Of a stretch of 64,000 bases of DNA, positions 58,748 to 61,977 are shown piece after piece. The notes under the pieces are model-generated. The model had not been told where the DNA came from and ran no database searches. It was given only the letters and a program-made list of their open reading frames with translations. Both the position numbers and the translations under genes were made by a program. Each line of letters begins with the position of its first letter. Within the stretch, counting starts at the first letter, position 1. This DNA comes from Escherichia coli (lineage in GTDB: Bacteria > Pseudomonadota > Gammaproteobacteria > Enterobacterales > Enterobacteriaceae): NCBI RefSeq assembly GCF_003334765.1, contig NZ_QOWT01000011.1; one strand, 5' to 3'.

Positions 58748-59881
58748 TCAAAACGAAGCTAATTGACCCTGAATCCAGATTTGTTGCACATGTAGCCCGC
58801 TATCCAGCGCAACGACGCTGGCGCGTTTGCCCGGTTTAAGCGATCCCAGAACACCATCAACACCCAGCATTCGCGCCGGATGCAGCGACGCCATATGGAT
58901 GGCTTCCGCAGGCGTTACGCCCGTCAACTCGACCATATTGCGCACTGCCGCATCAACAGACAGCGTACTGCCCGCCAGCCCACCAGACGCGGTACGGACA
59001 ACGCCACCGTGCATCTGCACTTCTTCACCACATAACGTATAGCGACCATCCGGCATCCCAGCTGCCTGCATCGCGTCGGTGATCAGTACGATTCTCTCTT
59101 TCGCACAGCAACAACACAGCGACATTGCCGCCGGATGCACATGATGACCATCGGCTATCAGTTCCAGCCAGGCGCGCTTGTCCGTTAATCCCGCGCCAAC
59201 CATTCCCGGTTCGCGGTGATGTAAACCTGTCATCCCGTTATAGCAATGCACCAGGCCGTCGGCACCAGCATCAAATGCGGCGCGGGTTTGTTGCCAGGTC
59301 GCCGCGCTATGCCCCAGCATCACCCTTACGTTTTGCTGTTTAAGATGGCGGATGGCCTGCAATGCCCCTTCTTTTTCCGGTGCCAGCGCTACCACACGTA
59401 AGGTGTGCTGAGAAACGGCAATCAACTGATCCAGCTCGGCAATTTCAAGCTCGCGAAACAACTCCGGCGGATGCGCGCCTTTATTCTGCGGCGTGAAGTA
59501 CGGTCCTTCGAGATAACTCCCCAGCACTTGCGCACCAGGTCCGCCGCGTTGGCAACGTTGAGCAATACGTTTCAGCGCCGCATGAATGGTATTAAGCGGC
59601 GTGGTTACGGTGGTCGGTAACCAACTGCCGACACCTTCGCGTGCCTTGTGCATTGCCAGCTTGTCGAGTACATCCGGCGCGTCATCCATTACATCAACGC
59701 CCGCACCACCGTGTACATGGGTGTCGATGTAAGCAGGGCAGAGCAGTTCCGCATCGCGTTCAGTCACGCCCGCTGGAATCGGTTCGATTGCTGCGATGAC
59801 ACCGTCAGCAATACGCAACTGATGGTCATCGAGCCATCCCTCTTCAGTCAGCAGCCTTCTGGCGCGCAGAACGTGTGTCAT
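58748..59881 (-). CDS. agaA: N-acetylgalactosamine-6-phosphate deacetylase AgaA (full length)
   Basis: In-frame ATG (minus) at 59881 within ORF 58748..59902; 377 aa MTHVLRARRLLTEEGWLDDHQL...; NagA-like metal-binding motif (HVHGG). Confidence 0.9.
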   Translation of the reverse strand: MTHVLRARRLLTEEGWLDDHQLRIADGVIAAIEPIPAGVTERDAELLCPAYIDTHVHGGAGVDVMDDAPDVLDKLAMHKAREGVGSWLPTTVTTPLNTIHAALKRIAQRCQRGGPGAQVLGSYLEGPYFTPQNKGAHPPELFRELEIAELDQLIAVSQHTLRVVALAPEKEGALQAIRHLKQQNVRVMLGHSAATWQQTRAAFDAGADGLVHCYNGMTGLHHREPGMVGAGLTDKRAWLELIADGHHVHPAAMSLCCCCAKERIVLITDAMQAAGMPDGRYTLCGEEVQMHGGVVRTASGGLAGSTLSVDAAVRNMVELTGVTPAEAIHMASLHPARMLGVDGVLGSLKPGKRASVVALDSGLHVQQIWIQGQLASF

Positions 59882-60312
59882 ATTCCTTCCTCGACCGGAC
59901 ATTCTTCATGGCAGCGGCCTAACTCGTCCACCAGACTGGTCAGCCCTCGGTGTCCACACTCCAGCGCCTGTACACGGAATTCTTCACCGCTTAACCCTTC
60001 GCGCTCCAGCACCATCTCCAGTAGCAGTTGCAAATTGGTGCCGGTGATCACTTCACAGCCCGGTTTTTGCATCGCCAGCGTTGAAGCTACGCGAAACGGC
60101 GTGCCGCCCAGCAAATCCGTCAGAAAAACAATGCCGTCTTCACAATCCAGTTGGGCGATGGCCTCTTCAAGCTGCGATGTAAGCAGCGCGGTGCTTGAGG
60201 TTTCCGGAAAATCGATGGCGATAAACTGCGATTGCTCACCGAGAATTTGCTTCATTGCTTTTTCCATGCCGCTGGCAAACCCGCCATGCCCTGTCAAAAT
60301 AATACTTAACAT
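59878..60312 (-). CDS. agaF: PTS N-acetylgalactosamine-specific IIA component AgaF
   Basis: ORF track 144 aa; overlaps agaA start by 4 nt. Confidence 0.9.
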   Translation of the reverse strand: MLSIILTGHGGFASGMEKAMKQILGEQSQFIAIDFPETSSTALLTSQLEEAIAQLDCEDGIVFLTDLLGGTPFRVASTLAMQKPGCEVITGTNLQLLLEMVLEREGLSGEEFRVQALECGHRGLTSLVDELGRCHEECPVEEGI

Positions 60313-60329
60313 CTAATACCTCATTGTAT

Positions 60330-61208
60330 TTAAAGGAAATGGCAGAATTTACCGACGATGCCGAGAACCACGGTAACTGCAATCAGACGCAGCGGACTCC
60401 AGCCGCGGCGTACCAACCAAAACATGGTCAGGGTGTAGACCAACGGTAAGAAGGCCGGCATCAGTTTGTCGATAACATCAGCCTGTAACTTAACCACTGC
60501 GTCGCCCGCCGTGATTTCCAGCGTGGTGCTTAAACGAACATAGGTTGCCACCAGCGCACCGATTACCGTCATCCCAACGATAGACGCAGCATGGCCGACT
60601 TTTTTGGTATTCGCTTTAATCAGTGGAATCGCCGCCACGCCCATGCGGTAAGCATAATGCGCCAGACCAAAACGCAGCCCCAGGTGTACCACGTTGAACA
60701 GCACAATAAAGACGACTGCGCCAAGAATGGAGCCTTGCAATGCCAGACTGGCTCCAATCCCGCCACAAATCGGCAGTAGCGTTAGCCAGAACATTGCATC
60801 GCCAATCCCGCCAAGCGGCGCACCGACGGCAATTTTGGTGCTCTGAATACTGTTAACGTCCTGCTTAGAACGCTCCATCGCAAGGATAATGCCGATAACA
60901 AACGTCACCAGAAACGGATGGGTATTGAAGAAACCCATATGCCCCTTCATGGCGCGCGCCAGGTCGCGTTTATTAGTGTGGATCTTTTTCAGAGCAGGCA
61001 GCAGACCGTACAACCAGCCAGAAGCCTGCATACGTTCGTAGTTAAAAGACGCTTGTAACAGCATGGAACGCCAGGCGACGCGGTTGATATCTTTTTTCGT
61101 CAGCTCCGCGCCAATGCTCTGATCTTCATACACGTTTTCATTGACGCCAGTCAGCAATGTTTCTTCGTTTTCACTGACGTTCGGCAGGGTGGTTTGATTA
61201 GATGCCAT
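60330..61208 (-). CDS. agaE: PTS N-acetylgalactosamine-specific IID component AgaE
   Basis: ORF track 60330..61214 starts at TTG; ATG at 61208 gives 292 aa MASNQTTLPNV... Confidence 0.88.
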   Translation of the reverse strand: MASNQTTLPNVSENEETLLTGVNENVYEDQSIGAELTKKDINRVAWRSMLLQASFNYERMQASGWLYGLLPALKKIHTNKRDLARAMKGHMGFFNTHPFLVTFVIGIILAMERSKQDVNSIQSTKIAVGAPLGGIGDAMFWLTLLPICGGIGASLALQGSILGAVVFIVLFNVVHLGLRFGLAHYAYRMGVAAIPLIKANTKKVGHAASIVGMTVIGALVATYVRLSTTLEITAGDAVVKLQADVIDKLMPAFLPLVYTLTMFWLVRRGWSPLRLIAVTVVLGIVGKFCHFL

Positions 61209-61977
61209 CTTCAAATTCCTCTTTCTGTGCCGCAGGTTGAGTCGGTTCAGGAGATTTACGCAGCAAGTCGATCAGCGCCATCGCCAGCGCAGCGGCAGCA
61301 ATAGCCAGCACTGGTAACTTGAGCCAGGCGGCGGCAACAAAGCCCAGGATGAAGTAGGGGATGTAGACGTTTTTCATCATGATTTTCAGCAGCACGGCAA
61401 AACCGATTGCTGGCATGATGCCGCCCGCGACGCCGAGGCCGTCGATTAATCGTTGCGGCAGGACATCAATGATGGTTTTTGCATGTTCCGCGCCGAAGTA
61501 GATAGGCAGGAAAGCGCAGAGAAAATAGAAAATGCCGAGTGCCAGCAGTGCCAGATAGTTCACGCGTTCAATGCCGCGAGTATCGGCGTTCTCCGCCATC
61601 CGGTCGCAGCGAGACATCACGCCGGACATCACCGAGAACAGGAAGGTAATCCCCATCTGTACTGCGACAGCGAAAGGTACGGCGACACCTACTGCGACAT
61701 CGGGTTTCACGCCAGTAGTAATGGCAAACGCCGTGCCGACGATAGTACCGATAATCACGTTAGGCGGCTGTGCGCCCGCCAGCGGGGCCAGCCCCATCCA
61801 CACCAGTTCCAGCGTACCGCCGGTTAAAATTCCGGTATGCAGATCGCCAAGTACCAGCCCGACCAACGGGCCGAGGACCACCGGGCGGTGCATATGGGTT
61901 AGGCCGTTAAACATATCCAGGCCAGCGATAAAGGCGATAATGCCCAACGCAAATGCCTGCAACAGGCTGATTTCCAT
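61198..61977 (-). CDS. agaW: PTS N-acetylgalactosamine-specific IIC component AgaW (full length)
   Basis: ORF track 259 aa. Confidence 0.9.
   Translation of the reverse strand: MEISLLQAFALGIIAFIAGLDMFNGLTHMHRPVVLGPLVGLVLGDLHTGILTGGTLELVWMGLAPLAGAQPPNVIIGTIVGTAFAITTGVKPDVAVGVAVPFAVAVQMGITFLFSVMSGVMSRCDRMAENADTRGIERVNYLALLALGIFYFLCAFLPIYFGAEHAKTIIDVLPQRLIDGLGVAGGIMPAIGFAVLLKIMMKNVYIPYFILGFVAAAWLKLPVLAIAAAALAMALIDLLRKSPEPTQPAAQKEEFEDGI

Follow-up and report, generated by a model that had tools for sequence, protein, structure and literature searches.

A complete aga/gam gene set in an Escherichia coli sequence with K-12-like flanks, and substitutions in its AgaV and AgaB transporter subunits

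The stretch of Escherichia coli DNA analysed in our study (64,000 nucleotides, hereafter the window) very probably holds the complete, ancestral aga/gam regulon, retained undeleted on a K-12/C-like haplotype, with a gene set that predicts growth on N-acetylgalactosamine (GalNAc). Twelve genes in the order kbaZ-agaV-agaW-agaE-agaF-agaA and agaS-kbaY-agaB-agaC-agaD-agaI occupy the minus strand at positions 53348-63764, which is the complete E. coli C-type order:

62484-63764, minus strand: kbaZ (agaZ), 426 aa, tagatose-bisphosphate aldolase subunit, named kbaZ in the annotation of identical DNA; leading gene of the kbaZ-agaVWEFA operon
61988-62461, minus strand: agaV, 157 aa, GalNAc-specific PTS IIB; NCBIfam NF008508 equivalog, 316 bits against a cut-off of 180
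61198-61977, minus strand: agaW, 259 aa, full length, GalNAc PTS IIC; NCBIfam NF040757 equivalog, 410 bits against a cut-off of 300
60330-61208, minus strand: agaE, 292 aa, GalNAc PTS IID; NCBIfam NF040760 equivalog, 618 bits against a cut-off of 500
59878-60312, minus strand: agaF, 144 aa, IIA common to the GalNAc and galactosamine (GalN) PTS; NCBIfam NF040761 equivalog, 219 bits against a cut-off of 130
58748-59881, minus strand: agaA, 377 aa, GalNAc-6-phosphate deacetylase, NagA paralogue; TIGR00221 (nagA deacetylase model), 290 bits against a cut-off of 225.65
57243-58397, minus strand: agaS, 384 aa, GalN-6-phosphate deaminase/isomerase; TIGR02815, 635 bits against 529
56370-57230, minus strand: kbaY, 286 aa, tagatose-1,6-bisphosphate aldolase; identical across all strains compared
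55727-56203, minus strand: agaB, 158 aa, GalN-specific PTS IIB; Ser14 codon at 56162-56164
54885-55688, minus strand: agaC, intact
54104-54895, minus strand: agaD, intact
53348-54103, minus strand: agaI, intact

Between positions 58748 and 61977, agaA, agaF, agaE and agaW form four uninterrupted minus-strand open reading frames with zero internal stops, at the coordinates and full lengths (377, 144, 292 and 259 aa, respectively) given in the original prediction, and agaV lies just beyond the interval to which that prediction referred. The same four lengths are annotated by RefSeq in a strain whose DNA matches this region at 100% identity. AgaE has 292 aa when counted from its ATG and 294 aa from an upstream TTG, and AgaA has 377 aa from the second ATG and 384 aa from the first. 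The equivalog models of AgaV, AgaW, AgaE and AgaF, as well as the nagA model for AgaA, were all matched end to end above the curated NCBIfam cut-offs. Plus-strand antisense reading frames in the block (e.g. 59648-60316, 222 aa) were rejected as by-products of coding on the opposite strand, being located fully inside well-supported minus-strand genes.

According to the original prediction, K-12 carries a deletion removing agaE, agaF and parts of agaW and agaA, and both blastn and base-by-base comparison bear this out. Exactly 2,305 bp, at about 59303-61607 of the window, are absent from K-12 strains MG1655 and DH1, and an uninterrupted agaWEFA was not found when MG1655 was aligned. Both genomes align in two pieces that omit window positions 59307-61601, with a 6-bp exact overlap at the junction. 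The features involved are the following:

59303-61607: segment missing in K-12, 2,305 bp; equivalently 59297-61601 owing to the repeat
59297-59302: left junction microhomology GGTCGC; 10-bp form GGTCGCCGCG, one mismatch to the right copy
61602-61607: right junction microhomology GGTCGC; 10-bp form GGTCGCAGCG, the version retained in K-12

As a consequence, K-12 lost agaE and agaF entirely, together with agaW from about codon 124 on and codons 1 to about 193 of agaA, while the remnants, the 5′ part of agaW and agaA from about codon 194 onward, are both annotated as pseudogenes. The K-12-type agaW′-′agaA junction (CCAGGTCGCAGCGAGA) is absent from the window, where both breakpoint flanks are present 2,305 bp apart. 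From the junction only, we infer that the K-12 deletion arose by a microhomology-associated event at GGTCGC, in which the 2,305 bp between agaW and agaA, and with them the transporter, were lost; the event has also been termed "site-specific recombination" (PMC2808357). The failure of K-12 to use GalNAc, to which the original prediction had tied the deletion, agrees with the literature, where K-12 is described as Aga- Gam- owing to the 2.3-kb deletion and E. coli C, with all 13 genes, as Aga+ Gam+ (PMC3668189; PMC2808357). Both the deletion and the Aga-/Gam- phenotype were published by Brinkkötter 2000, according to its citation in Hu 2013. The loss of these 2.3 kb from K-12 has been known since 2000.

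An intact block is normal for the species, with K-12 as the exception. With presence defined as coverage of at least 80% of the 2.3-kb segment, the block was found in 4,931 of 5,426 complete E. coli genomes (91%), at identities of 96.6-100% and from many hosts, and it is therefore not distinctive of the window strain. It is likewise full in E. coli C, REL606 and O157:H7. The K-12 junction, counted as a full-length match to a junction 200-mer, occurs in 371 of the complete genomes, and 60 out of 60 among the matches listed are laboratory K-12 derivatives. A chicken isolate, TUM12357, also has this junction, either as a K-12 derivative or transconjugant or through an independent event. At the same time, the DNA flanking the block differs from K-12 at only 5 positions in 10.2 kb (99.9% identity), which indicates that the window carries a K-12/C-like haplotype in its undeleted form. 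The description of the strain as not K-12-like at the aga locus consequently holds for the deletion, but not for the flanks, which share the haplotype that existed before it. K-12 has the same AgaI, AgaD, AgaC, KbaY, AgaS and KbaZ proteins as the window, and the differences comprise the additional 2,305 bp, R14S in AgaB, I56S in AgaV and a yraJ frameshift.

The reference strain shown by experiment to be Aga+ Gam+ is E. coli C (Brinkkötter et al. 2000; Hu, Patel & Mukherjee 2013), which shares all 12 genes and their order with the window and differs from it by 4 nucleotides in 12.7 kb. Ten of the 12 proteins (AgaW, AgaE, AgaF, AgaA, AgaS, KbaY, KbaZ, AgaC, AgaD and AgaI) have exactly the sequence found in the window, KbaZ being identical in strain H3 as well. 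The differences from E. coli C are R14S in AgaB, Ser56 in AgaV (Ile in C), Gly112 in AgaV (a C-specific Cys) and one synonymous change in agaS at 58371. AgaE is further identical to that of B and O157, and AgaF to that of B and of one O157:H7 strain with wild-type AgaF. The whole agaVWEFA block is shared with O157:H7 at a DNA identity of 98.7%, but this lineage carries lesions, namely agaF G91S in spinach-outbreak isolates, which as a single change makes some O157:H7 isolates Aga- (PMC3668189), and the amber mutations agaC Q8* and agaI Q72* in EDL933/Sakai. None of these O157 lesions was seen in the window, where the translations have Gly91 (wild type) in AgaF, Gln8 in AgaC and Gln72 in AgaI.

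N-acetylgalactosamine is a mucin-derived sugar of the gut mucus, relevant to gut colonisation. In its pathway, AgaV (IIB), AgaW (IIC), AgaE (IID) and AgaF (IIA) constitute a mannose-family PTS that brings GalNAc into the cell as GalNAc-6-phosphate, which is deacetylated by AgaA, with NagA able to stand in. AgaS then converts GalN-6-phosphate into tagatose-6-phosphate by deamination and isomerisation, and after a further phosphorylation the resulting tagatose-1,6-bisphosphate is cleaved by KbaY/KbaZ. AgaS is required for Aga as well as for Gam use (PMC3668189). Since the gene set is complete, and encodes the same AgaW, AgaE, AgaF and AgaA proteins as the Aga+ E. coli C, the window strain is likely to be Aga+, in support of the original prediction. 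This expectation is drawn from the genes within the window, with agaR located outside it, and would hinge on the rare I56S substitution in AgaV being tolerated.

The other substitution, R14S in AgaB, was overlooked in the original prediction. Mannose-family PTS IIB domains (ManX IIB, LevE, SorB, and PDB 3EYE, which is AgaB itself) have a phosphorylation-site motif, RIDxRL(I/V)HGQ, that is shared by AgaV and AgaB, and in the window the second Arg of the AgaB motif, equivalent to Arg172 of ManX, is replaced by Ser. Ser14 replaces a family-invariant Arg three residues ahead of the phospho-histidine His17 (S14-L-V-H17), so that AgaB lacks the arrangement of the IIB family (PF03830/TIGR00854), a phosphorylatable His preceded by an invariant Arg (R-L-I/V-H-G-Q). 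The corresponding column has Arg in 131 of 132 family representatives, and likewise in the four solved homologues among the alignments listed. In IIAB-Man, where this arginine is among the invariant ones, substitutions of Arg172 reportedly nearly abolish phosphotransfer to the sugar. Because of this conservation and the effect described for Arg172, R14S probably abolishes galactosamine uptake, and the window strain is probably Gam-.

Several alternative explanations could be considered for these observations. Apart from the bare difference in presence and absence, nothing speaks for the 2.3-kb block being an insertion or a horizontal acquisition in the window strain instead of a loss in K-12. 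K-12 still has the 5′ fragment of agaW and the 3′ fragment of agaA in register, aligned at 99.9% with the full genes of the window, the block is found across all kinds of genomes (91%), and hardly any genomes other than laboratory K-12 derivatives show the junction form. The probability of such an origin is therefore next to nil, and horizontal acquisition was rejected on account of the remnants and of the 91% presence; the ancestral nature of the intact state, with K-12 as the deleted form, held when checked against the truncated remnants and the population frequency. It is also very improbable that the intact block or the R14S base results from an assembly or sequencing error. The absence of the S14 allele from all 5,284 complete genomes matching that stretch could be taken to favour such an error, but the exact S14 protein is present on 8 public contigs, all 100% identical to the window, and the draft genome GCA_012531175.1 from NCBI, as well as three sequencing runs, each assembled independently, are identical to it over 1-16 kb, the agaB base included. 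In addition, this base alone sets strain H3 apart from the window over 12.5 kb. An artefact was consequently rejected for the block and for the agaB base alike, on the basis of four independent identical assemblies.

A strain with the complete gene set might still be Aga- or poorly Aga+ if I56S destabilises the GalNAc-specific IIB. Residue 56 of AgaV (codon 62294-62296) is Ile in K-12, C, B and O157, and the Ser allele occurs in 21 of 5,311 genomes. The exchange is non-conservative, and among 141 family representatives the column holds V or I in 84 and V, I, L, M or F in 104, so a rare substitution at a mostly hydrophobic position could weaken this subunit. There is also the precedent of AgaF G91S, a point mutation in the same PTS that abolishes Aga use in O157:H7 isolates. 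On the other hand, small or polar residues are seen in the column (A in 14, T in 10, S in 4 and C in 2 representatives), the allele is maintained among isolates of human, swine, poultry, lettuce and wastewater origin, and the phosphorylation motif of AgaV is intact, with the invariant Arg12 and the catalytic His15 both present (mannose-family PTS IIB, PF03830/TIGR00854). Impaired GalNAc use due to I56S is on balance unlikely, and the Aga+ phenotype remains the preferred prediction.

Strain H3 has the same AgaV (S56) as the window, but its AgaB is wild type. We slightly favour a scenario in which the window strain, GCA_012531175.1 and the three sequencing runs represent a small natural, phylogroup-A-like E. 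coli clone with uncoupled halves of the regulon, where AgaVWEF would be kept and AgaB inactivated by R14S, giving Aga+ Gam-. If true, this clone would have reached such a phenotype by another route than O157:H7, in which agaC has an amber mutation.

Beyond correct annotation, the importance of the intact block is small, as the K-12 deletion belongs to textbook strain knowledge. Metabolic models or phenotype predictions derived from K-12 would, nevertheless, wrongly call the window strain GalNAc-negative. The presence of genes is also insufficient by itself, since single substitutions in PTS subunits, such as AgaF G91S in O157 or AgaB R14S and AgaV I56S here, can decide the phenotype.

In regard to regulation, agaR was correctly placed outside the window in the original prediction, while agaI and agaC, which it also considered relevant, are inside and intact. 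The start of the divergent agaR falls about 13 bases outside the window (position 64013, transferred from the annotation of identical DNA) and was seen on contig L009, which is identical to the window. AgaR represses the kbaZ and agaS promoters. A search with an AgaR operator pattern attributed to Ray & Larson 2004 gave 7 matches in the window, where 0.09 would be expected, and 6 of the 7 are within the two aga promoter regions:

58449-58709: agaA-agaS intergenic region (agaS promoter), with AgaR-operator-like sites at 58449-58472, 58527-58550 and 58686-58709
63796-63996: kbaZ-agaR intergenic region, with AgaR-operator-like sites at 63796-63819, 63878-63901 and 63973-63996

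The E. coli aga/gam cluster occupies the right end of the window (53348-63764, minus strand), and all 12 of its genes from kbaZ to agaI were found to be free of internal stops:

62484-63764, minus strand: kbaZ, 426 aa
61988-62461, minus strand: agaV, 157 aa, just beyond the coordinates originally predicted for the agaV-agaW-agaE-agaF-agaA block (58748-61977)
61198-61977, minus strand: agaW, 259 aa
60330-61208, minus strand: agaE, 292 aa
59878-60312, minus strand: agaF, 144 aa
58748-59881, minus strand: agaA, 377 aa
57243-58397, minus strand: agaS, 384 aa
56370-57230, minus strand: kbaY, 286 aa
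55727-56203, minus strand: agaB, 158 aa
54885-55688, minus strand: agaC, 267 aa
54104-54895, minus strand: agaD, 263 aa
53348-54103, minus strand: agaI, 251 aa

The lengths predicted for agaW, agaE, agaF and agaA are exact, given the second ATG of agaA and an ATG, not the upstream TTG, of agaE; the same starts are chosen by RefSeq in a strain with 100% identity to the aga stretch. AgaV, AgaW, AgaE and AgaF match NCBIfam equivalog models end to end, as AgaA does a NagA-type deacetylase model, all above the curated cut-offs.

The claim that K-12 has lost agaE, agaF and parts of agaW and agaA is borne out by the alignments of DH1 and MG1655, which leave out 2,305 bp. In each of these strains the alignment breaks into two blocks, one covering window 50374/51500-59306 and the other 61602-64000, which share 10 bases on the K-12 side. 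Base-by-base comparison places the crossover within a 6-bp exact repeat, GGTCGC (59297-59302 and 61602-61607), reaching 10 bp with one mismatch, so that 2,305 bp are absent from K-12. Lost are agaE and agaF in full, agaW from about codon 124 on and the first 193 or so codons of agaA; the length is no multiple of three, and both K-12 remnants, of agaW and of agaA, are annotated as pseudogenes. Since this segment is missing in MG1655, the uninterrupted agaWEFA sequence is not shared by that strain; the original observation is confirmed and its interpretation supported. The agaW'-'agaA junction looks like the product of an ordinary microhomology-mediated deletion, a mechanism inferred from the sequence.

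With a coverage of at least 80% and an identity of 96.6-100%, the 2.3-kb segment was found in 4,931 complete E. coli genomes out of 5,426. The strains that carry it were isolated from humans, livestock, poultry and food, and the full block is also present in E. coli C, B REL606 and one O157:H7 strain. The intact block is the species norm and nothing unusual, and both it and the K-12 deletion were published in 2000. A 200-base probe of the K-12 junction matched over its full length in 371 genomes; among the matches listed, 60 of 60 were laboratory K-12 derivatives (MG1655, DH5alpha, DH1, C600, J53, NCM3722 and others). The exact junction was also seen in NZ_CP134370.1 (624659-624858), from the non-laboratory-looking chicken strain TUM12357 (5.03 Mb).

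The description of the locus as not K-12-like holds for the 2,305-bp deletion alone and fails for the remainder, since few positions differ from K-12 (5 in 10.2 kb, deletion aside) or from E. coli C (4 in 12.7 kb, and another 49 kb showing 10 mismatches and 2 gaps). Judged from these alignments, the window has a K-12/C-like haplotype in its undeleted form.

In regard to function, the pathway was worked out in E. coli C, which is Aga+ Gam+, growing on both N-acetylgalactosamine (GalNAc) and galactosamine (PMC3668189). AgaV, AgaW, AgaE and AgaF form the GalNAc PTS, and AgaB, AgaC, AgaD and AgaF the galactosamine PTS, AgaF being the IIA common to both; GalNAc-6-P is deacetylated by AgaA, which NagA can replace, GalN-6-P is converted to tagatose-6-P by the deaminating AgaS, not AgaI, and tagatose-1,6-bisphosphate is cleaved by KbaY/KbaZ (PMC3668189). 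AgaW, AgaE, AgaF, AgaA, AgaS, KbaY, KbaZ, AgaC, AgaD and AgaI of E. coli C are identical to those of the window, and the O157:H7 lesions AgaF G91S, agaC Q8 amber and agaI Q72 amber, looked for in the window sequences, are absent. AgaV, the GalNAc-specific IIB, carries I56S (window 62295; codon 62294-62296, minus strand). Just 21 of 5,311 complete genomes contain the exact 61-mer with this base; their isolates came from humans, swine, poultry, lettuce and wastewater. Position 56 is mostly hydrophobic among 141 aligned family representatives (mainly V, 48, and I, 36), with A in 14, T in 10 and S in 4 as well, and the substitution is probably, if unproven, tolerated. E. coli C itself has Cys112 in AgaV (codon 112 of its sequence, L008; window 62128), where the window and K-12 have Gly, so that the Aga+ reference strain is not "wild type" at AgaV either. 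The window strain is likely to be Aga+.

A different outcome is predicted for galactosamine. AgaB, the galactosamine-specific PTS IIB, carries Ser for Arg at codon 14 (window 56164; codon 56162-56164, minus strand), three residues ahead of the phospho-histidine His17. None of the 5,284 complete E. coli genomes matching the agaB stretch has this base; nevertheless, the R14S allele is real and the property of a small clone, because the exact S14 protein lies on 8 public contigs (from draft genome GCA_012531175.1 and the sequencing runs ERR271232, SRR3951470 and SRR11772978) that match the window at 100% identity along as much as 16.3 kb. Arg occupies this column in 131 of 132 family representatives, the remaining one having Lys and none Ser, and is also found in the solved structures with alignments shown, including AgaB itself (3EYE) and ManX IIB. 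Replacement of the equivalent ManX Arg172, reportedly described by Gutknecht et al. in 1998, is said to nearly abolish phosphotransfer to the sugar. R14S predicts a loss of galactosamine uptake, and since AgaB serves galactosamine and not GalNAc, the strain would on balance be Gam-, while the Aga+ call is unaffected.

A pattern for the AgaR operator, reportedly described by Ray and Larson in 2004, has 3 matches in one aga promoter region and 3 in the other, with 0.09 expected in the whole window. The single intergenic difference from K-12 (window 63860) falls outside these predicted operator-like sites. According to the annotation of an identical strain, agaR starts about 13 bases beyond the window end. 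AgaR is the repressor of the aga/gam system (PMC3668189), and in E. coli C lacking it the Aga PTS is able to transport even glucose. Adjoining agaR in REL606, the toxin gene yhaV (20266-20730 of the REL606 sequence, L006) is annotated with an internal stop, unrelated to the aga block.

Elsewhere in the window, the fimbrial usher gene yraJ (49044-51560, minus strand) has a one-base deletion relative to MG1655 at about 50604/50605, splitting it into two ORFs (49044-50486 and 50552-51560), and RefSeq flags a frameshift in the yraJ of strain H3, which is nearly identical, for which reason the yra fimbrial operon probably does not function.
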